Of a DNA stretch of 64,000 nucleotides, positions 8,419 to 28,440 are shown piece after piece (position 1 is the first letter of the stretch; each line of letters starts with the position of its first letter). The stretch covers positions 8,832 to 72,831 of the forward strand of contig CAZPWM010000001.1 of the NCBI GenBank assembly GCA_964590575.1. The letters run 5' to 3'. This DNA is from an uncultured archaeon. Lineage in GTDB: Archaea > Asgardarchaeota > Thorarchaeia > Thorarchaeales > Thorarchaeaceae. Position numbers and translations under genes: made by a program. Under the pieces are notes generated by a model. That model had not been told where the DNA came from, ran no database searches, and was given only the letters and a program-made list of their open reading frames with translations.

Positions 8419-9456
8419 TTACCTTGAGGATTCAAGAGTCTGCAAGAAGATCTCTTGGAATTTAGAACTCTCCTCATGAATCTTTCTTGAGAGTTCTGGA
8501 CTTGCACCTGAGAGACCACATTGTGTGGATACCATCGTGTTCCTTTCCACTAGGTCCAAGTCAACACCACTTTCTTTCAACAACCGAAAACTCTGTTTCA
8601 GATTAATTGAAAGGGTTTCTAGAATCGATTTCGAGTACGAGTTATCAACATTAGGTAGTGCACCAAGGGCAAGCCCGCCCCCATGCTTCATGAACTCATT
8701 CATTTTCTTTGCCTGTTCCTGCTTAACTTCCGGAGGATATCGGACCAAATCAATATGTGCAAGTTTTGGTTTGCTTTCCCAAAGAGGATACCATCCATCG
8801 AAATTCAATATGCGCCAATCATCACAATAATGGAAAGCTGGGATAACACTCTTAGGATAGACACTATCTGTTTTGTTAATTATTTCTTTCAGAGTGAGTC
8901 CTGGTACAAGTCCTTGATTGATCATCTCAAACACGTGTCCCAAGCTTGGGTCATCTTGGCAAAGAATTAGTGAGTCACAGAACTTGCTTAGGTATTCGAC
9001 CTGACCGATCGCAATCCGTTTCATCAGTCTATGAAAGAAATAGAACATATTCTGAGTAATATGCTGTTTGCCGCTACTATCTCTAATAGTATAGCACATC
9101 GTGGCTGGTGCTGTCTGTTGCGTTTTAAAGATAGGATACATTGTTCCATCCATCATTAAATAGTGACTATGTCCGTGTTCTTTATCCAGCATCAGTGGTC
9201 CATCGTTACTTACCATCTCCCGATATGTATGAATGTCGACATCGAGAACGAAGTTCCCCTTTTCTTCAAATTCCTCCACCAAGACCGCAAACTGTCTTAT
9301 CATATCCTCTTCACGTAAGGCTGTTATACTGTACGAATATGGAAGATTCAATTTCTTCACATAATCAACAGGTATTGATGGATTTGGTTCACCTAGACTA
9401 CCCACTCCAAAGAACTGACCTGCCAAATCTTTTGGAAGGCAACTTTCCAGTTTCAA
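8419..9456 (-). CDS. Hypothetical protein, possibly cobalamin-independent methionine-synthase (MetE C-terminal)/URO-D-like fold
   Basis: 345 aa; C-terminal ...VSTQCGLSGASPEL resembles MetE-like zinc-site region; weak. Confidence 0.45.
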   Translation of the reverse strand: MKLESCLPKDLAGQFFGVGSLGEPNPSIPVDYVKKLNLPYSYSITALREEDMIRQFAVLVEEFEEKGNFVLDVDIHTYREMVSNDGPLMLDKEHGHSHYLMMDGTMYPIFKTQQTAPATMCYTIRDSSGKQHITQNMFYFFHRLMKRIAIGQVEYLSKFCDSLILCQDDPSLGHVFEMINQGLVPGLTLKEIINKTDSVYPKSVIPAFHYCDDWRILNFDGWYPLWESKPKLAHIDLVRYPPEVKQEQAKKMNEFMKHGGGLALGALPNVDNSYSKSILETLSINLKQSFRLLKESGVDLDLVERNTMVSTQCGLSGASPELSRKIHEESSKFQEIFLQTLESSR

Positions 9457-11177
9457 TCACCTCTTTTTGCTTGGCTACGTCGTCGAATGACCTTGTTGCA
9501 TGATTGAACCGCTGGGCAACCTTTACAAAGTTCAGGAACATCTTCGATAACCTGGTCCTCTCCGTAAATTAAGAACTGATCAGCAATCGAAGATTCCGCA
9601 GAAACCATCGCCTCCTCGTTTTGGCTTTTTTTCCGAACCATACATTTGTGCTTGCGAAGATTTTCACTTAGCTCAACCGAATTGCCAGATACTACGACCG
9701 CTGTTGGTCCAACTTTTCTGACAATCTGTTTCGTGAAATCTGGAATCATCATTAATGTTTCAAGGTCCTGCTCACTCTCAGTTTCAAAAAGGGTGACTTC
9801 GGATATTGTAGTGAAGGTGGTTTGAGATGTCCAATCTGTAATAGATCTAACTACATTTCTGGGAACTGGTTTACTGCTCTCTTTCTCTAGGAAGCCAAGG
9901 ATGTCATCTTCACGCAGTCCAATCTCAATCGCCTCGAAGATTGATTTATCTGAAATTTTGAACGTGCTCACTACATCTGTACGAATTGGTTCTGTCAAGA
10001 GCATTAAACGGTAAAGTTTCTGGTATTCCATTTCACTGGTGAATACAGTGAGCTCGAAGTTTGGCAACACAAAGAATGATTCTCGCATCTCAGGCTTTTC
10101 GAACGGTGTCCCCAGGAGAACGTTTTCACCAACATCTGTCAATCTAACTGCGAGAAGTTTCTTGCCACGATATGCTGCTTCAACCAATCCCAGAAGTATT
10201 GGCGTTTCAAGAGATAATTGAACTCTATCCTCGTCGACCTGAATCCATTTCAATGATTGATTCTCTATGAACAATTCACTCCTAATCCAATCCCTGAGTT
10301 CTTCAATACTGATCCAGTCTTCAGACGTACTTTCTCGAAGTCTACAAATTGCCAGATTGAGCGTGTATTCTGTAGGTTGATCAGGGGTGGCCCAGATTGC
10401 TCTTGTTCTGCCAAGTTGGGACAATAGCAGTCTACGAGCTACATTGCGATGCTCTCCTGCAAATAGAATATCTATTTTGGATGGCTGGACTTTATCTCCT
10501 TCTCCTACAGTGTAAGCTCCCATTTTGCGCGCCATCTTTTGGACTAGTTCAAATCGCTCATCGGTTTTCTTAGACATAGGTTCTTTGATGTAGTCGATTT
10601 CTCTTCTGGGAAACTCCCAGGCACTTGTGAGGTGGACCTCTCGTTTTGCTATATGTGATACAAGCAGGAGCATATCTATAATCAAAGTGTCTCGTTCATT
10701 TACGATGTCTTTGACTTTCTTTGGCTTCTCTGGTTGGGGTTGAGGTTTTGTTTCAAATAGGTCCCTTAGATGGGGGATAAAGAACTCTAGGACCTTGAAC
10801 TCTGCAACCTCTCGTCCAAATTCTGTTAATCGTGACATCATTTGTCTGATGATGATACCCTTTTTCCGAAGGTCTCTCTCCGTTTGATTCAGTTGCCCAT
10901 AACTATAGATCTTTCTGAAAGGCTTGAGTCGGTCATAGCTCATAGCTCCCCCACTAAGTGTTAAGAGTCCCAGCAGATCTTTCTCGAGTTGAGAGAATGT
11001 GGCAAATATTCTTTCCCTCTCTTCTGGCATCCTCATTTTCTCTGCGAGCATTTTGATAAGCGATGATCCAGTGTCTTTTCCTGTCACGTCAATGGACCAA
11101 TACTGACATGCAAAGAGTAAGTCTTCTCTGAGGACATGTTCAAGTTCTTTCTCTAGGGATTCTTTTGCCATTATCAT
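9453..11177 (-). CDS. Large hypothetical protein (574 aa), cytoplasmic, C-terminal CxxC...C cluster
   Basis: Long ORF, overlaps downstream gene by 4 nt (operon); no recognisable catalytic motif. Confidence 0.55.
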   Translation of the reverse strand: MIMAKESLEKELEHVLREDLLFACQYWSIDVTGKDTGSSLIKMLAEKMRMPEERERIFATFSQLEKDLLGLLTLSGGAMSYDRLKPFRKIYSYGQLNQTERDLRKKGIIIRQMMSRLTEFGREVAEFKVLEFFIPHLRDLFETKPQPQPEKPKKVKDIVNERDTLIIDMLLLVSHIAKREVHLTSAWEFPRREIDYIKEPMSKKTDERFELVQKMARKMGAYTVGEGDKVQPSKIDILFAGEHRNVARRLLLSQLGRTRAIWATPDQPTEYTLNLAICRLRESTSEDWISIEELRDWIRSELFIENQSLKWIQVDEDRVQLSLETPILLGLVEAAYRGKKLLAVRLTDVGENVLLGTPFEKPEMRESFFVLPNFELTVFTSEMEYQKLYRLMLLTEPIRTDVVSTFKISDKSIFEAIEIGLREDDILGFLEKESSKPVPRNVVRSITDWTSQTTFTTISEVTLFETESEQDLETLMMIPDFTKQIVRKVGPTAVVVSGNSVELSENLRKHKCMVRKKSQNEEAMVSAESSIADQFLIYGEDQVIEDVPELCKGCPAVQSCNKVIRRRSQAKRGD

Positions 11178-18482: not shown

Positions 18483-19196
18483 GTGCATCCCCGTCTACTA
18501 CAACTTGTAGGAATCATTTTAGTAATTGTTACACTTGCGATGACCTTCATTGTCTACCAAAGCACAATGATGATAGAAGGTCAAGAGTTCTTCACGATGA
18601 TTGCTTCAGGAATGATTGCTTGGGCTATTGTTGCATTACCTGAATTAGTACTTGGCTTATGGCTGATTGCCAAAGGAACGCGTGAGGCTCGTATTGGAGA
18701 TGTATCAGGAGACCTCATTCCCCTTGTACAGAAAGAAGGTCGTATCAGTGTGGATGATGCTGCCAGACAACTTGCTGTTGAACCACAGGTTGTCGCTGAC
18801 GCAGCAGAGAAACTAGCTAAGCGTCGACTGCCACTTGTATACCTAGATCGACGAGCTCATGAGATTGTGAGTCCGAAAGCTGTATCGTTGAAGGAGAGTC
18901 TGTTACATCTTCTCTATGCACAGCGACGAATGACTTTTGACCAAATACAAAAAGTAACCGAGTCAACTGATGAGCAGATAGTGGATGCCTTGAAGGAGTT
19001 GTCAAAACAGGGCAAGTTCAGAGGAGTAATTGATGAGAACTCGAGGGTGGTATACACTCAGGAAGCAGTATCTCAACTTCCTAAAGCAGTGACTGTTTGT
19101 CCTAACTGTGACGGAAAGTTGGAAGCTCCAATTCTACCAGGTGAGGAAGAATTCTGTCCATATTGTGGACATGCTATCGTGAACAGACTGAAGTGA
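18483..19196 (+). CDS. Membrane-anchored hypothetical protein with C-terminal zinc ribbon
   Basis: 2 N-terminal TM helices; C-terminal CPNCDG...CPYCGH. Confidence 0.5.
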   Translation: MHPRLLQLVGIILVIVTLAMTFIVYQSTMMIEGQEFFTMIASGMIAWAIVALPELVLGLWLIAKGTREARIGDVSGDLIPLVQKEGRISVDDAARQLAVEPQVVADAAEKLAKRRLPLVYLDRRAHEIVSPKAVSLKESLLHLLYAQRRMTFDQIQKVTESTDEQIVDALKELSKQGKFRGVIDENSRVVYTQEAVSQLPKAVTVCPNCDGKLEAPILPGEEEFCPYCGHAIVNRLK

Positions 19197-19200
19197 CCTG

Positions 19201-20019
19201 TTACACTGCACAGGCGTAGGCTAGATTGCCGCCATGATTGACTACCTGAGCATTTCGTCTTCCTGAGTTCAGTTCAGAGAGGAACTCGCTTATCCCCTCA
19301 TTGACATCCTGGTATGACAATTCTCTGCCTGCAGTCCGTAATGCTATAGGTGCATAGCTCTCCTTCAGGATTGAAGCGTAGTCCCTCCTCAACCCCATCT
19401 TGTCACCAAAAATCTCTACACCCTGGACCTTCCCATCAACACTGACGATCATTCCAACCTCATCGTCTGTCCAGTTGAAGCGACTTATGTATCTCTCAAA
19501 TTCATGTCCATGGTATGCATAGAGTTCTCCAAGTGCGCTTGTGCCAGAGTGGACTCCCCATGCTGAGAGAATCTGTTGAACTATGCTCCATACATATTGT
19601 TGGTTCCTACCTTCTAGGATTGCCTTTCGCATTGTGATCGGTGTGTTAGTATGTAACCATTCACCCTGTGAGTGTTCCCATCTTCCTGCTTCGATGCAGA
19701 ACACATTCAGGTTTCTATATCCTTCAACTACTGTACTCTCAGCAATAATGCGGTCCTGCTTTCCGCCTCCGAGTACTCCCTCACCACACCTGACCAATGT
19801 TGGTTCTTCTGCGAAGAAGCGAAGACTCGGTACATTACCGGTTTCTTCCACATTCATATTGCCCATTTCCAGAGCAATCTGAGTTGATACAATTCCATTA
19901 TAGAGCTCAGCGCTTGCATCTACAATACCGGTCACCGCTAAATTCCCTTGGATCTGTGGTGCGGTCAATTCAGCATTATCGACTAGCTTCAATACTTGTC
20001 TTGTGGCCCCATTACTCAT
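19201..20019 (-). CDS. Hypothetical protein (272 aa)
   Basis: Long ORF, no recognised motif. Confidence 0.5.
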   Translation of the reverse strand: MSNGATRQVLKLVDNAELTAPQIQGNLAVTGIVDASAELYNGIVSTQIALEMGNMNVEETGNVPSLRFFAEEPTLVRCGEGVLGGGKQDRIIAESTVVEGYRNLNVFCIEAGRWEHSQGEWLHTNTPITMRKAILEGRNQQYVWSIVQQILSAWGVHSGTSALGELYAYHGHEFERYISRFNWTDDEVGMIVSVDGKVQGVEIFGDKMGLRRDYASILKESYAPIALRTAGRELSYQDVNEGISEFLSELNSGRRNAQVVNHGGNLAYACAV

Positions 20020-20089: not shown

Positions 20090-21241
20090 TCATTCAAATC
20101 TCTCTCGACGAACTCTCCATCTATTAATGACGGTATCTCCTTTTACAACATGATAGTTGTCGTACAAATTTGCAGTAAGGCATGAGTGGTTGGGAAGTAT
20201 CCTAATCTTATCTCCATGTTCAAAATGAAGAGTAGCATTTTTAGTCATGACGAGTTTTCCGTGCTCCTGTGATAATGCGTCAATGATTACCCCACTTTCT
20301 AAACTCCCTGCATCGTAATCTCTGATTACCTGACCATATCCAGGGTTAGGTATAATATGAGTTGGTCCTTGGTCTTTTGAAAGAGCGGTTGCTCCTGCAT
20401 CAATCACAATCCTGTCTTTGTTTTTGCTTATGACACTCGATAGAACGGTAAGAGCGCAATCAGCTACTTGACAAGAGCCTAGAGCAACCTGTGTATAATC
20501 AAAGAATACATAGTTACCCGGTCGTATCTCAGTAATGCCATCCCGAAACGTGTCCGTGAGAAGCGTAGTGGGTGTTGAACCAATACTTACCACTTCAGGA
20601 GCCAGTTGAGCGCTTTCAGCCTTCAGTGTTTCTGCGAATTGAACCATTATTTCTTGCTCTTGTTTCGCAATGGTCTTGATCTCTTCAACAGTGGTCCCAT
20701 TATAGGAATGACCTGCATGAGTCAAGATACCTTTGAAGTGTAGGTTTGGATTCTCATGAATCTTCTTTACAAGCGTAACCGCGCTGGGGCTTTTTGGGTC
20801 GATACCACATCGAGGGTATCCACAGTCTACCTTGACCAGAACATCTAGTTTCATCCGCGCCTCTCTACAAAACCTCTCAAGATGGTCGACGATTTTCGGA
20901 TGATCCACGAGTAAATTTAGGTGCGTCTTTTCCGATATCCGTCGTACTCCTTGAAACTTGTCTAATGCTAGTGGGACTGCGTATGATATATCCCTAAATC
21001 CTGCATCTGCAAATGCATCTGCTTCACCGAGTGTTGAAACTGTTATGCCCACTGCTCCATTTTCTAGTTGCTTCTTGCCAATCTCAATGCATTTGTGAGT
21101 CTTGATGTGTGGACGAAGATTAACTCCATTCTTCTTTGCCTTAGCAGCCATACTCCTGATATTGTACTCTAGCTTATCATAATCTACGAGGAGAATCGGA
21201 GTCTTTAGGTCTGACAGATTCATCTTTGGCATTGCATACAC
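20090..21241 (-). CDS. PLP-dependent fold-type III enzyme (alanine racemase N-domain; D-serine dehydratase/D-threonine aldolase-like)
   Basis: RPHIKTHKC (PLP-lysine in HxKT context), 383 aa with C-terminal beta domain. Confidence 0.75.
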   Translation of the reverse strand: MYAMPKMNLSDLKTPILLVDYDKLEYNIRSMAAKAKKNGVNLRPHIKTHKCIEIGKKQLENGAVGITVSTLGEADAFADAGFRDISYAVPLALDKFQGVRRISEKTHLNLLVDHPKIVDHLERFCREARMKLDVLVKVDCGYPRCGIDPKSPSAVTLVKKIHENPNLHFKGILTHAGHSYNGTTVEEIKTIAKQEQEIMVQFAETLKAESAQLAPEVVSIGSTPTTLLTDTFRDGITEIRPGNYVFFDYTQVALGSCQVADCALTVLSSVISKNKDRIVIDAGATALSKDQGPTHIIPNPGYGQVIRDYDAGSLESGVIIDALSQEHGKLVMTKNATLHFEHGDKIRILPNHSCLTANLYDNYHVVKGDTVINRWRVRRERFE

Positions 21242-21856: not shown

Positions 21857-23290
21857 TCACGTTATTCCATGTTGACTACCACGAATCCGTCGCCGAAGGT
21901 TGAGACGAACTTCATCGACCCTCTCTTTCACTCTACTCCCCTTTGGCCAGAACTCCTTGATCTCATCAAAGCCATGGACATCCCAATAAAGCGGACATGC
22001 TCCATAACAGTAGCTAAACTTGTCACATTTCTTACAACCTTCTGGAGCAAAGTCCTTCGCTCTCCAGAATTTACTAGCTCTATTATACCAAACCTGCTCA
22101 AACCCTTCGTTGAGTAGATTTCCAACAGGTTCACTGAAGCTTGAGCATGGAAGGAGACCTCCTTCTGCGTCAACTGAAAGTAACCCATCACAACAGGCAC
22201 AGCTCTTAGCTCCGAGTCCGTGCGCTATCGGGTTGAAGATACAGACTGGTGTGGGTGCGTACCACACGAACTGAATGCACTTTTTATTTGCACGTCTCTT
22301 AACGCGTTTCACAATGTCCTTGATTTCAGAATACTTGACTTGGAGTTCCTCTCTGAGTTTGGCTGCTGTCCCAGTGTATATGACCATGTTCATACTAAAG
22401 TAAGTGAGCTCCAAAACATCAGCATGGAAATCAACTAGTTCCTCAAGCTTGTCTAGATTGGGTCTGCAGATGGTTGTGTTGCAGTGTGTGTAGATGTCGG
22501 TTTCCCGTAGATTCTTGATACCCTGCACAGTCTTGTCGAAGGCACCTGGGCTTCCAACAATGTAATCGTGCGTTTCAGCATCTGGACCTTCAATAGAAAC
22601 CTGTGCACTGTTCAGTCCCGCATCAACTAGCTTCTGTACGAATTCCTTGTCGTGGCAACGAATTCCATTTGTGATTAGATTGACACGAAGGCCCCTCTTT
22701 CTTGCATGGGCTATTAGTTCAAACAAATCCTCCCGGAGGGTTGGTTCTCCACCAGTGAAAGACAGACTTGGAACATGTGCATCATCAACGATGATGTCAA
22801 TGACCCGTTTCACTTCCTCAGTCGTCATCTCACCGGATTCTCGATACGGTGAGTAGGCATAACAGAACCGACACTTGTTGTTGCATCGATAGGTGAGAGC
22901 AATTTCACTAAGGACTGGATACTTGATCTCTCCTTCTCCAAATGGCACTATCCTCGCAGTCTTGTAGCTATAGATGTTCTGATTGCCTATGGCCATGTTT
23001 CTGAGATCATCAATAAAAGCGGCGAGGTCATTGGTAACAACCTGTTCTGCTCCTCCTGCATCCACAAAGTGCTTAATGATATCCTCTAGTGACTCATTGT
23101 CAAGAAGCATCTTTAGCATCCTCATACCAGTTTCATTCAGATGCATTATCTTGTTCGGACGTAGAATGAGTAGGTTGTCCTGAGGTCTTGCAAAGAAGAA
23201 GTCTCTAACCTCATCAATGAAAGCAGGAACCCATTGCAGGTCTTCCAATGTGTAATCATAATAGGGTATTGAAGGCGGTGAGGTCATCAC
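21857..23290 (-). CDS. Radical SAM/SPASM-domain peptide/protein-modifying enzyme with N-terminal PqqD-like RRE domain
   Basis: N-terminal ~90 aa PqqD-like pattern (LILRPNKIMHLNETGMRMLKML...EDIIKHF), CNNKCRFCY (CxxxCxxC), C-terminal SPASM with CKKCDKFSYCYGAC (CxxCx5Cx3C) and additional Cys. Confidence 0.85.
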   Translation of the reverse strand: MMTSPPSIPYYDYTLEDLQWVPAFIDEVRDFFFARPQDNLLILRPNKIMHLNETGMRMLKMLLDNESLEDIIKHFVDAGGAEQVVTNDLAAFIDDLRNMAIGNQNIYSYKTARIVPFGEGEIKYPVLSEIALTYRCNNKCRFCYAYSPYRESGEMTTEEVKRVIDIIVDDAHVPSLSFTGGEPTLREDLFELIAHARKRGLRVNLITNGIRCHDKEFVQKLVDAGLNSAQVSIEGPDAETHDYIVGSPGAFDKTVQGIKNLRETDIYTHCNTTICRPNLDKLEELVDFHADVLELTYFSMNMVIYTGTAAKLREELQVKYSEIKDIVKRVKRRANKKCIQFVWYAPTPVCIFNPIAHGLGAKSCACCDGLLSVDAEGGLLPCSSFSEPVGNLLNEGFEQVWYNRASKFWRAKDFAPEGCKKCDKFSYCYGACPLYWDVHGFDEIKEFWPKGSRVKERVDEVRLNLRRRIRGSQHGIT

Positions 23291-23393
23291 AATTGAGATT
23301 TACTCTGACCATCTTAAGGGTTCGGTTAGAGGTATGAGAATCTGAAAGGCTTATCAGTCTCCATTCTTCAGATATGTATAACATCATCGTGGA

Positions 23394-23798
23394 GTGTCTT
23401 CGATGAGCACAAATGAGATAAAATTACCATATGGTACGATTTCGAAGAAGAAGTTGATTATGCATTTCAGTGCATATGACATAGATTTGCCAGTTATCGC
23501 AGCTGGCATTCGCGAGAGAATGGACGTTCTGAAAGAACTAGAAGTTTCATTCGCTGGGTTTGGAACTGAGGTTCCTGAGAAAATGACGGAACAATCACCT
23601 GCAGTCATAAAGTGCTTCTTTGAGTATGTTGGAAAAGAGACTGATGCAAGTGTTATCTTGAAACGTGTTTACCACTTGATTTGGGGAGGTATGATTTCGG
23701 AATTCCCTGATCTTGTTGAGTGGGCTGCCGCGAAGGCTGACCTTTCAAATCTCACTATCGCACAAGCGGATGTTCTCAGAGCACAACGTGGCGATTGA
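23394..23798 (+). CDS. Hypothetical protein (134 aa)
   Basis: ORF divergent from rSAM gene, co-directional with downstream Cys-His-tail protein. Confidence 0.45.
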   Translation: MSSMSTNEIKLPYGTISKKKLIMHFSAYDIDLPVIAAGIRERMDVLKELEVSFAGFGTEVPEKMTEQSPAVIKCFFEYVGKETDASVILKRVYHLIWGGMISEFPDLVEWAAAKADLSNLTIAQADVLRAQRGD

Positions 23799-23849
23799 AC
23801 TAATCAATGGGTCTAGTAATTGGAGACTAGTTAGTAAGAGGGTCATGCT

Positions 23850-25979
23850 GTGAAGAGAGATCTGGCAAACGCGTTCATAATTGGTCTGATACTGCTTTCA
23901 GCTATCCCCATCTATTTCGCAGATAGCACACCGAGCCAATCAGTTGAGGTCAATCTAGATAGTGTCCTAGTAGATGTTATGGTACTTCAAAATGGACGAA
24001 TCAATGTCACTTACTGGATTACTATCACAGTTTTATCAGGAACTCTCAACGAGTTTGACCTTTTCGGAATCCAAGAAACCACGATTTATGACACTGATCG
24101 CGCGTATGCTGAAGTAGGAGAAAATCGTTACAGTTTACTTGTTACAAAAATGTCGAGTGGATACACACTGAGGTTATCACAGAGTGTTTCTGCAGTGAAC
24201 ACTGTGACTGTTGTCTTTGGTTACTACAGTACGAATCGAATCATAGAGAAAACAACATCTGGCACTTATGGAGATCTTGGAGTTTTCAATTGGGCACCGG
24301 TCCAATGGGAGATCCCTATTGACTATGAAGCAGTCCAGGTCATCTATCCTATCGAAATGAATGCGTCATGGATTGAACCAAGTAATGGCGTTACTACTGA
24401 AGGCGCTGAGTTCGCTGGTTATGTCGTAGATGCCAATCAAGGTCTATGGGATGGAAGTCTCTTCGAGAACTTCGAGGAAGAGAATCTTCTAGCGTATCCG
24501 TATAGTGCCTCGGCTGATCCTCGCTACTTTACAGTTAGTCTAGGTCACACAAATATTGGAGATTATGATCATTTTAGGGTTTTTCACTACACTAACTGGA
24601 GCTTCTACGAACCATATCTTGAAGCTGGTGCTCTTGGTATCGATTATGTTCCGATAATCAATGTTAACGCAGATACGCTGTTTAACCTGCAGCTTGCCGT
24701 TTTCAACTATGGTGATGCTAACTTAGAGGATGTGACAATTACTATGTCTTTGCCCGAAAATCTCACACTCACGTCTGGGTCTGTGACGACACTTGTGGGA
24801 GATTTATCAGGTGGAGAAACATGGTACGAGTCTTACTCACTCATCCCTGCTAATGTTCCGGCTATCCTTACGATAGCTTTCCAAGTGAGTGCATCAAATC
24901 TGAACGCAACTGATTGGCTCACATTCACAATTGATGTATATGTCCAGGAGTATATTCCTCCGTTGATTCCGCCGAATCTGCTATTTGGAGGAGCCGCCAT
25001 TGTTATTGCTCTAGGTTTCATATTCTATGGCTACAGGAGAGTCACTCGTACCTATGGTGCAAAATGGGAGGCTGATGATACAACCTATACCTATGAGAGT
25101 CCTGAGATAGCGATACAGACATTCGGAGAGCCGGGAACGGTTGCAGAACTGGATCCAATCGAATCTGCATTCTTCATCAATACAACGCGACAAAAACTCG
25201 TGTCAATGATTCTCATGTCTTGTGTCAGAAAAGGCGCAGTTCGAGTTTTATCCACAGATCCTATGAAGCTCTCGGTGACAGGTCTTCAATTCCAAGACTT
25301 GACATATTATGAAGAGCTGTTTCTAGCAGCGATTGTTGATGATGAGCTCGACCCTGAGAAAGTAGATGACTTGCTTGAAGAGCTTGCTGACAAAGTTCAG
25401 GAGAAAGCATGGAGTGCAGACTTTGAGGCTACTAAGACACAGCATGACGAGATGATCGATGGGGCATGGGAAGAGTTAGAATCCTATCCAACACCGGATG
25501 ACAGGATAGACTATTACTTCAATCGTCAATACCATGGAGGTGGTTGGGCTTGGTATTGGCTGTACATGAATCCACGACATGATCACATCGGCGATGTCTT
25601 TGATAGACGTGGACCCTCCATCTCACCACCACAGGTTCCAGACTGGTTCTCTCAACTATCTGAGGCGACAGGTCATGCTATTAGTGGTGTTGGTCGGGTA
25701 GTAGGTGATGTAGCGGCAACCACTGGTCAGATTATGAACAATGTTGCAAACACTATTGGTAGTGTCCTTGAAGGAGTAGGCAATATCATCACTGAACCAC
25801 TAAAACCTCTTATTGAGAGTACCAGCAGATGTGTGTCACACGATGCATGTCATAGTGCTTGCGTTTCTCATGATGCATGCCATAGTGCCTGTCACAGTGC
25901 TTGCCATAGTGCTTGTGTCTGTCATAGTGCGTGTCATAGTGCCTGTCACAGTGCGTGTGTTTCCGGGGGCTTTAGATAA
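23850..25979 (+). CDS. Signal-anchored/single-pass membrane protein (709 aa) with C-terminal (Cys-His-Ser-Ala)n repeat tail
   Basis: N-terminal hydrophobic signal/anchor, mid-protein TM (LLFGGAAIVIALGFIFYGY), C-terminal 49 aa containing 11 Cys and 10 His in CHSAC/CVSHDACHSA units. Confidence 0.7.
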   Translation: MKRDLANAFIIGLILLSAIPIYFADSTPSQSVEVNLDSVLVDVMVLQNGRINVTYWITITVLSGTLNEFDLFGIQETTIYDTDRAYAEVGENRYSLLVTKMSSGYTLRLSQSVSAVNTVTVVFGYYSTNRIIEKTTSGTYGDLGVFNWAPVQWEIPIDYEAVQVIYPIEMNASWIEPSNGVTTEGAEFAGYVVDANQGLWDGSLFENFEEENLLAYPYSASADPRYFTVSLGHTNIGDYDHFRVFHYTNWSFYEPYLEAGALGIDYVPIINVNADTLFNLQLAVFNYGDANLEDVTITMSLPENLTLTSGSVTTLVGDLSGGETWYESYSLIPANVPAILTIAFQVSASNLNATDWLTFTIDVYVQEYIPPLIPPNLLFGGAAIVIALGFIFYGYRRVTRTYGAKWEADDTTYTYESPEIAIQTFGEPGTVAELDPIESAFFINTTRQKLVSMILMSCVRKGAVRVLSTDPMKLSVTGLQFQDLTYYEELFLAAIVDDELDPEKVDDLLEELADKVQEKAWSADFEATKTQHDEMIDGAWEELESYPTPDDRIDYYFNRQYHGGGWAWYWLYMNPRHDHIGDVFDRRGPSISPPQVPDWFSQLSEATGHAISGVGRVVGDVAATTGQIMNNVANTIGSVLEGVGNIITEPLKPLIESTSRCVSHDACHSACVSHDACHSACHSACHSACVCHSACHSACHSACVSGGFR
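25831..25964 (+). repeat. In-frame tandem 12-nt/30-nt coding repeat (TGYCAYAGTGCN)n encoding (CHSA)n
   Basis: Directly visible periodicity: tgtcatagtgct / tgccatagtgcc / tgtcacagtgct ... ; two longer 30-nt units (CVSHDACHSA). Confidence 0.8.
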
Positions 25980-26735
25980 TTGCCAGAACCTTTTGCTACT
26001 ATTTTCCATCTTAGTGACATACACATAGGTGAAGCTGGAGTTACTGTAAATGACCTGAAGAAAGCCATCGACTCAATTGAAGAAGTAGCTGCAAGTTCAC
26101 CCGCACCCTTACTGATTGTGACTGGCGATCTTACCACTGAGGGTCTCTTAGAGGAGTATGAGGGAGCTGCGTCAGTATTGAATGATGTTACGTTTCCTAA
26201 AGTAATCATTCCTGGGAATCATGACGAAAGGAATTATGGATCAGTGTTGTTCGAAGAGATGTTTGGGGATCGATTCAAGACATTCGAGTCTGAACACTTG
26301 GCGGTCTTTGCTGCTGATAGTGCAGAACCCGATAATGATGCAGGTCATGTTGGTAGGGTGAAGTACAATGAGATTAGAGACTTTTTCAATCAAGCCAAGA
26401 ACAAGACAAAAATATTTGCTCTTCATCATCACCTAATCCCAGTTCCACACACTGGACGAGAGTTTAATGTAGTAGAAGATGCTGGTGACGTTCTTGGTGT
26501 ACTTGATGGTGCAAGATGCTCATTGGTCTTGAATGGTCATCGTCATGTTCCATGGATGTGGCGACTAGGCGAGATGATTCTATTCAATACAGGAACTCTT
26601 CTTTCACGACGTGTTCGAGGGTCGATGACACAGCTACACACGAGGATTTCATTGAGTGCAGACCATGTCAGTTTTACACTCTGTCATAAAGATGGCAGCG
26701 AACGACTGTTTGCGGAATCCTCGTTTCGTGTGTAA
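25980..26735 (+). CDS. Calcineurin-like metallophosphoesterase
   Basis: LSDIHIG, GDLTTEG, GNHDE, HHHL, GHRH motifs; start (TTG) immediately after upstream stop - translational coupling. Confidence 0.75.
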   Translation: MPEPFATIFHLSDIHIGEAGVTVNDLKKAIDSIEEVAASSPAPLLIVTGDLTTEGLLEEYEGAASVLNDVTFPKVIIPGNHDERNYGSVLFEEMFGDRFKTFESEHLAVFAADSAEPDNDAGHVGRVKYNEIRDFFNQAKNKTKIFALHHHLIPVPHTGREFNVVEDAGDVLGVLDGARCSLVLNGHRHVPWMWRLGEMILFNTGTLLSRRVRGSMTQLHTRISLSADHVSFTLCHKDGSERLFAESSFRV

Positions 26736-27210: not shown

Positions 27211-28440
27211 ATGGTCACGATGAATGCGGCAGAGAGATTTGTGATAATTTGTGGAGAGATAGGAAACTACACCGAAAGGATGACCGGTGTTAGTGTTGTT
27301 GATGCATTTACCGGCCCTGAAGAATTTCATCCAAAGAAACAGAGTAAAGAGAAATCCCCTACTGAATTGGTTCATGATATCCATCAGACTTTCGACATGT
27401 TGCGAGATGAAATAGGTGACCCGATTCGTTTTGAATACATGATGGGTGAGTTACATTCGTTGAACGTAGTTGTTGACTGGGTTGCCGGAAAGGAGATGTC
27501 CTATGCGGAACTTGTTGAAGGGCTCTTTCAAATTAAGTTAAAACGATTCCCAGAAGATGATATTGACCAAAACATCCAACTACTAGAAGAACGAATCTCT
27601 GATTTTCCTGGAGATGATCTGCGCGATAAAGTTACTCGATTTGGCTCAGAGGGTGAAACTACCGGAGAGGCACTTCAACATCTAATAGAGAATGAACTTC
27701 AGAACAAATCCTTAGAAGTCGGTCAAATGTTCAGAAACCAAATATATTCGAAAATGGGTGCATCGGTTCCTGATAATGGAGTCCAATACGAGGCAGTAAG
27801 AAACCAACCCTGGAGCGGCTACAACTGGTATCAGGGTGGGTTCAAGTCTCTCAACCAGTTCAACATTGACTCTAAATTCAACAAGGACTCTCTACTCAAT
27901 GTAATCTATCATGAATATGAGCATCATGTTTCAAACCTGTGGCGTGAGAAAGCTTACCTTAACAGTAAGAACCTGGAGCTTTCCACTGTTCTTCTTCACA
28001 CAGGTCGATGCGTAATCTCGGAAGGAACTGCAGATTGTGCGAAGGAGTTTTTGGGAGTTACAGATGATAGTCCAAGAACACTAGTTGATAATACACTCTA
28101 TATACTACGACGTATGGTTGGTATAAATGCCGCAATCATGTTGAATGATGAGGGAAAATCTGCTGATGAGGCGGTTGACTACATGGTTAATCGAGGATTC
28201 CGAACACGTGAGGCTGCTCAACAATCGCTCAATTTCATTTCACCAACTTCAAAGGATGGGAAATTGAACTTCTTTGCTCCCTACATCTTCACCTACTTCC
28301 TAGGTCGGACAGACTATGTTCTCCCAATGTATCTCAAGGCAGTTGAGAAAGATGTACTTCCAGATTTCTTCAGGACCGTGTATATGAACCCATATTCGGG
28401 GTCAAGTGTAACATGGGACAAGTCATTCGACTGGATGTAA
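27211..28440 (+). CDS. Hypothetical protein with HExxH motif (putative zinc metallopeptidase-like)
   Basis: IYHEYEHHVSN; 409 aa cytoplasmic. Confidence 0.5.
   Translation: MVTMNAAERFVIICGEIGNYTERMTGVSVVDAFTGPEEFHPKKQSKEKSPTELVHDIHQTFDMLRDEIGDPIRFEYMMGELHSLNVVVDWVAGKEMSYAELVEGLFQIKLKRFPEDDIDQNIQLLEERISDFPGDDLRDKVTRFGSEGETTGEALQHLIENELQNKSLEVGQMFRNQIYSKMGASVPDNGVQYEAVRNQPWSGYNWYQGGFKSLNQFNIDSKFNKDSLLNVIYHEYEHHVSNLWREKAYLNSKNLELSTVLLHTGRCVISEGTADCAKEFLGVTDDSPRTLVDNTLYILRRMVGINAAIMLNDEGKSADEAVDYMVNRGFRTREAAQQSLNFISPTSKDGKLNFFAPYIFTYFLGRTDYVLPMYLKAVEKDVLPDFFRTVYMNPYSGSSVTWDKSFDWM

Follow-up and report, generated by a model that had tools for sequence, protein, structure and literature searches.

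A radical SAM/SPASM enzyme paired with a Cys-His-tailed membrane protein in Thorarchaeota and bacteria: a candidate two-gene protein-modification system

Maturases that combine a recognition element (RRE) for peptides that are synthesised on ribosomes and modified after translation (RiPPs) with a radical S-adenosylmethionine (SAM) core and a SPASM domain, and that act on a Cys-rich ribosomal substrate, are already known. The locus analysed here encodes an enzyme of this architecture and lies in a stretch of 64,000 nucleotides (nt) of contig CAZPWM010000001.1 from an uncultured member of the Thorarchaeaceae; this whole stretch is referred to as the window. A preliminary description of the region 21857-26735 had placed the enzyme gene next to a divergent unit encoding a protein of 134 amino acids (aa; p134), a 709-aa membrane protein with a Cys- and His-rich tail (p709), and a metallophosphoesterase. 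The enzyme and p709 probably form a two-gene protein-modification system, in which the RRE guides the enzyme to the tail as its substrate. New are the type of substrate, the clade to which the enzyme belongs and the distribution across domains of life.

Ranthipeptide maturation offers a first comparison. CteB, which carries a fused N-terminal RRE, acts on the SCIFF peptide CteA, while PapB acts on PapA (freyrasin). As at the present locus, a radical SAM core with SPASM-type clusters is combined with a Cys-rich substrate. PapA and CteA are short free peptides, whereas the candidate substrate here is the C-terminus of a membrane protein of 560-720 aa. Furthermore, the ranthipeptide repeats contain a fixed Asp or Thr acceptor and no His, whereas the repeat of the tail has an invariant His and no fixed Asp or Thr. 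Six thioethers of one kind are formed by PapB along the repeated CX3D motif of its substrate (PMC10177961), and the processive, unit-after-unit logic proposed here is similar. In CteB, PapB and Tte1186, auxiliary cluster 1 (AC1) is bound by three Cys ligands and a substrate Cys, and auxiliary cluster 2 (AC2) by four Cys ligands (PMC10177961).

QhpD is another SPASM enzyme and cross-links a protein subunit, QhpC, three times by thioethers within the chain (PMC7876137). This subunit is soluble and small (about 110 residues); its 28-residue N-terminal leader is cleaved off, and it is exported to the periplasm (PMC7876137). As proposed for p709, the modified polypeptide is kept as part of a functional protein and is not a secreted natural product, and the two genes are neighbours, being located in the same operon in the case of QhpD and QhpC (PMC7876137). 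However, the proposed target at the present locus is a repeat that forms the cytoplasmic end of a membrane protein and has no evident leader, and the window enzyme and QhpD show no sequence relation beyond the superfamily.

PqqE/PqqD likewise unites a recognition domain of the PqqD type and a radical SAM/SPASM enzyme, and the PqqE structure aligns with residues 106-433 of the window enzyme. In contrast to the PqqE system, neither a PqqA-like peptide nor other pqq genes are found here. PqqE links Glu and Tyr in PqqA, whereas the target here is rich in Cys and His. The predicted ACGX-repeat (TIGR04340), CXXX-repeat and His-Xaa-Ser systems also pair a SPASM enzyme with a short Cys-repeat target, these targets being small peptides. 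The A-C-H-S unit of the tail resembles the A-C-G-X unit, and no curated model matches the tail protein. On the substrate side, DUF2207/YciQ-like proteins (PF09972) show the same succession of signal, extracellular domain, transmembrane (TM) helix, cytoplasmic domain and low-complexity C-terminal tail. Ordinary DUF2207 proteins have Gly-rich tails. We know of no radical SAM partner of these proteins and, to our knowledge, no role has been assigned to DUF2207-like membrane proteins.

All four open reading frames (ORFs) of the ORF list are present where the preliminary description had placed them. The enzyme gene (21857..23290, minus strand; 477 aa) represents the first core component. Residues 42-98 of its product (22997..23167, minus strand) match the PqqD family of Pfam (PF05402) with 34.0 bits at a cut-off of 23.4, residues 132-288 match Radical_SAM (PF04055; 106.3 bits, cut-off 29.5), and residues 367-423 match SPASM (PF13186; 24.3 bits, cut-off 21.5). 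All three domains of the proposed maturase architecture are thus above their cut-offs, and the N-terminal domain scores as the RRE it had been taken for. The PqqD domain recurs in most enzyme orthologues and is weaker in a clade termed type III (20.0 bits). More than 85 orthologues were found in Thorarchaeota at 70-90% identity, while bacterial homologues show about 50%. In an alignment of 112 enzymes, the radical SAM motif CxxxCxxC, represented by C136-x3-C140-x2-C143, is Cys in 99-100% of the homologues. The RRE residues R35, D38, I42, P45, N46, N52, L59 and L62 are at least 90% conserved across all three clades, and the N-terminal domain as a whole is as strongly conserved as the catalytic core.

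The SPASM region (21995..22243, minus strand) contains seven Cys residues (C350, C364, C382, C419, C422, C428 and C432), each of which is Cys in 98-100% of the enzymes. Their spacing, C364-x12-G377-x4-C382 followed by C419-x2-C422-x5-C428-x3-C432, was compared with the reference SPASM motif for two auxiliary clusters, C-x9-15-G-x4-C ... C-x2-C-x5-C-x3-C ... C. The enzyme has no Cys past C432, and the additional conserved C350 is located 14 residues upstream of C364.

The enzyme gene is separated from the p134-p709 unit by a divergent intergenic region of 103 nt (23291..23393), which presumably contains the promoters. On the plus strand, it is followed by p134 (23394..23798), a small cytoplasmic alpha/beta protein, and by p709 (23850..25979), the second core component and presumed substrate. 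The metallophosphoesterase gene (25980..26735, plus strand; 251 aa) abuts p709, its TTG start coming right after the TAA stop codon. Most orthologues of the enzyme and of p134 measure 476 and 131 aa, and the true starts are therefore probably the ATG codons at 23287 (476 aa) and 23403 (131 aa). A check of the entire window revealed neither a second Cys-repeat tail nor a further radical SAM gene.

The link between enzyme and tail is carried by their co-occurrence. A genome scan with one genome per species yielded 80 enzyme loci, of which about 42 belong to Thorarchaeota and related Asgard metagenome-assembled genomes (MAGs), 35 to Anaerolineae (Chloroflexota) and 2 to Thermoproteota. In every Thorarchaeota locus with upstream DNA, tblastn with the window proteins located p134 divergent from the enzyme gene, and then p709. 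The exception is L011, a contig of 0.47x coverage on which p709 breaks off after about 80 codons. In Anaerolineae, a p709 homologue covering residues of about 380-705 is found immediately upstream of the enzyme gene and on the same strand in 26 of the 32 testable loci, and within 10 kb in two further loci. Both Thermoproteota loci encode a p709 homologue 2 kb downstream of the enzyme gene. The tail ORFs of Anaerolineae and Thermoproteota comprise 570-840 aa and end in nearly the same tail.

The reverse test, a scan of metagenomes by a degenerate DNA pattern of the tail alone, gave at least 120 loci. All matches listed are C-terminal tails; among them are 5 loci of the Thorarchaeota type, 27 of the Anaerolineae/Thermoproteota type, 84 of type III, with Ca. 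Ozemobacteraceae as a named member, and 4 others. Among these listed matches, an enzyme homologue is adjacent in 90 of the 98 loci with enough flank, and the type III enzyme gene starts a median of 27 nt past the stop codon of the tail gene. The other eight flank-testable loci have downstream sequence of at most 1.7 kb. Type III enzymes average only 43% mutual identity while the same repeat is kept, and enzyme clusters match tail types one-to-one with zero mismatches, a sign of co-diversification.

In Thorarchaeota the two genes diverge. In Anaerolineae and type III they are arranged in tandem with the tail gene leading, and in Thermoproteota and an Asgard locus with a hybrid tail the enzyme gene leads the tandem. 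According to neighbour clustering and profile comparisons, the enzyme and the tail protein are the only genes common to all lineages; no exporter is conserved next to the pair. No conserved short ORF, as expected for a typical RiPP precursor, accompanies the enzyme gene, the partner being the protein of 560-720 aa. A different short precursor gene had been named as evidence against the link. The enzyme orthologues are instead tied to tailed p709 homologues in three phyla and many metagenome lineages, and the co-occurrence with CHSA-tailed proteins is seen in both search directions. A functional tie between the enzyme and the p709 tail is strongly supported by this genomic distribution. The system, which had been considered undescribed "least of all in archaea", is far from archaea-specific, with several bacterial groups carrying the pair. 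Its presence in Asgard archaea and anoxic-sediment bacteria suggests horizontal spread of a habitat-useful trait.

The tail itself (25830..25976, plus strand) consists of the last 49 residues of p709, is built of H-[S/D]-A-C units and represents the presumed modification site. It contains 11 Cys, as previously stated, and 9 His rather than the 10 counted before, while the other 660 residues of p709 include a single Cys. The underlying DNA is an imperfect 12-nt tandem repeat. The tail is near-invariant in about 38 Thorarchaeota genomes. In 35 distinct DNA versions from Thorarchaeota, nucleotide identity is as low as 69%, synonymous sites have reached saturation (pS 0.93), and Ser codons swap between the AGY and TCN families, yet the encoded peptide remains 98-100% identical. 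The 31-residue linker just before the tail evolves much faster, with a ratio of non-synonymous to synonymous differences (pN/pS) of 0.28. Since the peptide is fixed while its synonymous sites are saturated, the tail is a functional peptide under very strong purifying selection, and not a chance or drifting low-complexity region.

This constraint extends across lineages. A tail core of 16 residues is identical in Thorarchaeota, Anaerolineae, Thermoproteota and type III tails, and a longer stretch of 26 residues is common to Thorarchaeota and most Anaerolineae tails. Within the repeat unit, Ala, Cys and His are fixed in all lineages, and the remaining position is occupied by S, D, N, Q or H. Outside the tail, p709 is only about 35% identical between phyla. 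The persistence of the core despite this divergence indicates a very exact structural or chemical requirement.

The architecture of p709 was derived from a cross-phylum alignment and a hydropathy scan. A signal/anchor sequence is followed by an extracellular domain, a single TM helix with a basic cluster, a cytoplasmic domain, a variable linker and the tail. The TM helix comprises residues of about 375-395 (24972..25034, plus strand) and precedes RRVTR; a basic cluster at this position is kept in all lineages. By the positive-inside rule, the C-terminal third including the tail is predicted to be cytoplasmic, which is compatible with a radical SAM enzyme, as such enzymes work in the cytoplasm. 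The motifs Y-E-x-P-E-I-x-I-x-T-F-x-x-P-G and W-x-A-D of the cytoplasmic domain are conserved across phyla, whereas an insert of about 110 aa with a weak DUF11 match occurs in Thorarchaeota p709 only. Tail proteins usually measure 560-720 aa and reach up to 967 aa in insert-bearing variants. Neither p134 nor p709 matches any Pfam or NCBIfam family, and p709 itself shows no DUF2207 match (PF09972) at E <= 0.01. Its homologues L045, L090 and L079 reach 22.2, 19.0 and 17.3 bits against the N-terminal domain of PF09972 (cut-off 24.4), so p709 may be classified as a remote DUF2207-like single-pass membrane protein. Sequence searches of the PDB with p709, p409 (a neighbouring gene product, see below) and p134 gave no match.

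An exhaustive search of 1.84 billion representatives assigned 210 representatives to the p709 family at E <= 1e-3. The tail is present in essentially all p709 orthologues; its absence had been named as evidence against the link. A first p709 search had returned seven matches, most of them seemingly tailless, but the idea that orthologues lack the tail was rejected as an artefact. One apparent C-terminus (P0122) is false, as contig L002 ends at 2490-2544 in the Nextera transposase adapter CTGTCTCTTATACACATCT, which cuts the p709 orthologue. Apart from P0122 and P0121, the remaining tailless matches stop at contig ends. P0121 derives from Thorarchaeota MAG QM2B.38, where an in-frame TAG (L001 4371-4373, the same contig as L007) is located about 20 codons before the tail, with the downstream frame and the tail intact. 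The close relative L041 has CAG (Gln) at this position. A point mutation of recent date or an error in sequencing probably accounts for the TAG and is a simpler explanation than a recoded codon.

With respect to the enzyme, comparison with curated families points to a distinct radical SAM/SPASM clade. It scores 146 bits against AhbD (TIGR04545; cut-off 500), 144 against NirJ2 (TIGR04055; cut-off 500), 133 against PqqE (TIGR02109; cut-off 381) and 101 against MftC (TIGR03962; cut-off 265), and is a member of none of these families. The same applies to the sactipeptide maturase StsB (NF045574; 113.5 bits, cut-off 625), the ranthipeptide maturase PapB family (NF047865; 91.8 bits, cut-off 340), the ACGX-repeat system (TIGR04340; 100.6 bits, cut-off 400) and HxsC of the His-Xaa-Ser system (TIGR03977; 108.3 bits, cut-off 267.9). 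The enzyme is also below the curated cut-off of the SkfB family of sactipeptide maturases (TIGR04403). Its nearest solved structures are SkfB (6efn, core only) and PqqE with about 71 bits each, and CteB is not among the solved-structure matches at E <= 1e-5. The assignment to a SCIFF/ranthipeptide type is therefore a matter of resemblance only: the likeness noted in the preliminary description holds, while membership does not, given that the enzyme is below all tested sactipeptide, ranthipeptide and other maturase cut-offs.

From these data, the tail is inferred to be the substrate of the enzyme, and a mechanism can be proposed. The enzyme would dock via its RRE on the cytoplasmic C-terminus of p709 after membrane insertion. 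5'-Deoxyadenosyl radicals would then abstract hydrogen atoms along the tail repeat, and many identical modifications would be installed in succession along the H-[S/D]-A-C units. By precedent, these would most likely be thioether cross-links from Cys sulphur to carbon, through which the flexible tail would become a rigid structure rich in Cys and His. The modified tail would stay on the protein and serve it, e.g., as a metal- or cluster-binding module; a metal-binding role of the mature tail is possible.

Several observations weigh against this proposal. In four of the 32 testable Anaerolineae loci, no tail gene was found within 10 kb of the enzyme gene. No leader or recognition sequence was identified, and the linker in front of the tail differs from lineage to lineage. 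The AlphaFold2 model of the p709 cytoplasmic domain with the tail is unusable, with a mean predicted local distance difference test score (pLDDT) of 48.6 and values of 30-40 in the tail. A Cys/His-rich tail could also bind metals without any modification. On the enzyme side, a search with curated models had been suggested; it recovers PqqD and SPASM in Pfam, but the enzyme reaches no NCBIfam equivalog (June 2026 release), those of maturases included, and its closest solved relatives are distant. The SPASM Cys pattern also differs: PapB and CteB have the same count of seven SPASM Cys residues in a different distribution. In a comparison of motif spacing only, the window enzyme shares the C364/C382/Cx2Cx5Cx3C spacing with CteB, PapB and Tte1186, whereas the last Cys, which ligates AC2 in these enzymes, is missing and an extra Cys is found upstream. 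The chemistry may accordingly deviate from that of thioether synthases. Finally, the variable position of the repeat offers no fixed acceptor such as the Asp of PapA. Together with the invariant His, the SPASM Cys pattern and the missing acceptor are three points that speak against a simple copy of PapB or QhpD.

Multiple thioether cross-links are put forward tentatively and by analogy, as thioether cross-linking is the commonest reaction of radical SAM RiPP maturases (PMC10177961). Somewhat doubtful, yet worth considering, is a new kind of structure other than thioethers, formed from the invariant Ala-Cys-His units; Cys-His cross-links would be one example, and a ladder of modified residues along which metal ions or clusters are held in a chain would be another. 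If this were true, a DUF2207-like receptor would gain a redox-active or metal-sensing cytoplasmic "wire". Together with the (Cys-Ala)n relatives described below, it would further imply that membrane proteins matured by radical SAM enzymes form a widespread, ancient class, found in several bacterial phyla as well as in Asgard and other archaea.

A separate issue is the fate of the modified tail. It likely stays attached, since the other p709 domains are conserved and no peptidase or exporter is common to the lineages. In an unlikely alternative, p709 would be a very large leader, from which a neighbouring metallopeptidase frees a modified peptide of about 45 residues; the product would be a true RiPP, e.g., a metallophore or signal. 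RiPP precursors with large N-terminal parts exist. Candidate peptidases would be p409 in Thorarchaeota, which is encoded beside the unit and retains its HExxH motif in 25 of 26 orthologues, and the InhA-like (M6-type) protein c16, which is conserved in the Anaerolineae cassette. The leader of QhpC is likewise removed by a dedicated protease of the same operon (PMC7876137). However, no peptidase is shared between the lineages, type III having instead m2, a protein without peptidase motif, and the InhA-like protein is probably secreted and would then act on the wrong side of the membrane. The conservation of both the extracellular and the cytoplasmic domain across phyla would also be unexpected in a mere carrier, and no exporter is conserved beside the pair.

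Even if the tail remains in place, it need not be the target. Cys/His-rich tails are classic metal binders, and the tail might be a docking or cofactor module that binds a metal or an iron-sulphur cluster and, via the RRE, recruits the enzyme to the membrane or else feeds it electrons, the real target being, for instance, a membrane lipid or a small molecule. The relatives of the enzyme include lipid-modifying proteins, namely the solved structure of GDGT-MAS (7tol, 61 bits) and the SPASM family Tes (NF045702, 92 bits), and a repeat without a visible fixed acceptor residue would suit such a role. This reading is nevertheless improbable. RRE domains are known as modules for recognition of peptide substrates, the similarity to the solved lipid enzyme is no higher than that to SkfB or PqqE (71 bits each), and no lipid-pathway gene is conserved beside the pair across lineages. 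The exact conservation of the repeat and the match between enzyme clade and tail dialect are what an enzyme-substrate relationship predicts. The remaining alternative, namely that the radical SAM enzyme is unrelated to a tail acting as a stand-alone metal-binding low-complexity region and that only inherited gene order keeps them together, draws on the synteny of the whole Thorarchaeota neighbourhood (Ala-racemase-like gene, p237, p409 and p456), which means that adjacency within this lineage alone proves little, but it is effectively excluded by the two-way pairing, which survives full rearrangement of the locus across domains of life with all other neighbours changing, also holds in the tail-first search, and cannot plausibly be explained by assembly chimeras on more than 150 independent contigs.

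The proposed enzyme-substrate system had been regarded as an arrangement not described before, and no matching Pfam or NCBIfam model or paper was found. Neither the clade of the enzyme nor the tail protein nor any accessory is represented by a model of the June 2026 release. Full-text searches of the available literature library gave no description of the system and none that pairs DUF2207 with radical SAM, although an earlier passing mention is possible. A large survey of RRE-associated radical SAM enzymes dropped candidate precursors from genes of more than 600 bp as false positives (PMC10288494), a filter that would hide exactly this arrangement. As the presumed substrate is, unusually, the cytoplasmic end of a large membrane protein, a whole class may have escaped standard RiPP mining. 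The radical SAM/SPASM clade is now paired with what is, judging by gene context, an almost certain substrate, which makes the chemistry directly testable, and the system provides a functional lead for DUF2207-like membrane proteins. Its hosts include the closest archaeal relatives of eukaryotes as well as bacteria typical of anoxic sediments.

Among the neighbouring genes, the metallophosphoesterase had been described as coupled to the unit. Its product matches PF00149 with 49.4 bits (cut-off 21.5). Of 33 Thorarchaeota genome loci, 18 carry the gene after p709 and 15 lack it, among the latter some close relatives of the window; no locus of Anaerolineae, Thermoproteota or type III has it. It was hence rejected as a component of the system on the basis of co-occurrence and is considered a patchy, non-core neighbour.

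The genes p134, p237 and p409 appear to encode lineage-specific helpers of the system. p134 is found in all Thorarchaeota loci with upstream DNA and in some type III loci. Its AlphaFold2 model (pLDDT 79.5) shows a generic alpha/beta sandwich, and a fold search returned only generic alpha/beta sandwiches (Z <= 7.3) with no convincing structural relative. A likeness to chaperones of type III secretion systems was dropped, as such matches were no better than many others. p237 (18483..19196, plus strand) is located outside the region of the preliminary description, on the far side of the enzyme gene, and occurs in 37 Thorarchaeota loci. The protein has two TM helices, a winged-helix-like middle part and a C-terminal zinc ribbon; its homologue in the Anaerolineae cassette is c18 (hhalign 96%, E 4e-9, 158 columns). 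Relatives of p237 are absent from type III flanks; small genes encoding TM and zinc-ribbon proteins also flank the (CA)n and CVC systems introduced below. Synteny and the hhalign comparison make p237 a probable accessory of the Thorarchaeota/Anaerolineae branch.

p409 (27211..28440, plus strand) is a Thorarchaeota-only neighbour, found in 26 loci just past p709 or the phosphoesterase. The sequence HEYEHH, an HExxH motif, is conserved in all but one of the orthologues covering this region, the exception reading HEYGHH. As no match was obtained in Pfam, NCBIfam or the PDB, p409 may represent an undescribed metallopeptidase family; its role in the system is speculative. Other lineages have different neighbours, such as c7, a coiled-coil protein of about 395 aa in Anaerolineae and Thermoproteota, and m2, a membrane protein of about 325 aa in type III. 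The possibility of one shared third component, with c7, p409, p134, m2 and m6 as remote homologues, was rejected, since hhalign gave at most 1% except for m2 and c18 (25%). Only p237 and c18 are related among the lineage-specific neighbours compared.

Two further genes are located between p237 and the enzyme gene. One, flanked by p237 and the Ala-racemase-like gene, encodes an ARPP-1 domain protein (19201-20019; PF20208, E 9e-37). Only seven of the related Thorarchaeota loci have it, which marks it as a variable insertion within a region of otherwise conserved gene order. The other gene (20090-21241) encodes Ala_racemase_N and D-Ser-dehydratase-like domains; in NCBIfam it comes closest to the 3-hydroxy-D-aspartate aldolase BhcC, with 161 bits against a cut-off of 690. 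This gene is found beside the enzyme gene in most Thorarchaeota loci. Because it is absent from the bacterial cassettes, its placement probably reflects synteny only. In Anaerolineae, enzyme and tail gene form part of a conserved block, which further encodes a GHMP kinase, a GT1 glycosyltransferase and an InhA-like protein with a MAM domain (L045 5956-8063 and 13121-15193).

The p709 family extends beyond the tail described so far. Full-length members show further tails, namely (CA)n, CVC-type and CHSA/(CA)n hybrid tails, the hybrid being found in a Promethearchaeota MAG. Loci with (CA)n, CVC-type and hybrid tails are given by L203 6001-9135, L204/L205 6001-8858 and L206 3131-7764. In one member checked per dialect, a radical SAM/SPASM gene adjoins the tail gene. 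These enzymes are 32-38% identical to the window enzyme over residues of about 25-445, including the RRE, and reach no curated family. By this similarity, the window system appears as one dialect of a larger uncharacterised superfamily.

In the (CA)n cassette L203, the first enzyme gene is directly followed by a second radical SAM gene (384 aa, RRE-like N-terminus, no SPASM match) and a class I methyltransferase gene (9119-11030), which suggests additional modifications in this dialect. P0310 is an apparent frameshift fusion, in which an out-of-frame (CA)n tail, RLRLRIVRLCLCLC, runs into the N-terminus of an RRE-type enzyme, and is independent evidence for the adjacency of the enzyme in the (CA)n dialect. 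Size variants were observed as well. P0264 and P0275 (923 and 967 aa) have a large cytoplasmic insert with zinc-ribbon-like CxxC...CxxC motifs and a shorter tail, and P0270 (507 aa) has the same C-terminal region and tail. In the metagenome locus L170, the CHSA repeat is fused to a Gly/Ser-rich end, which is presumably of the kind found in ordinary DUF2207 proteins.

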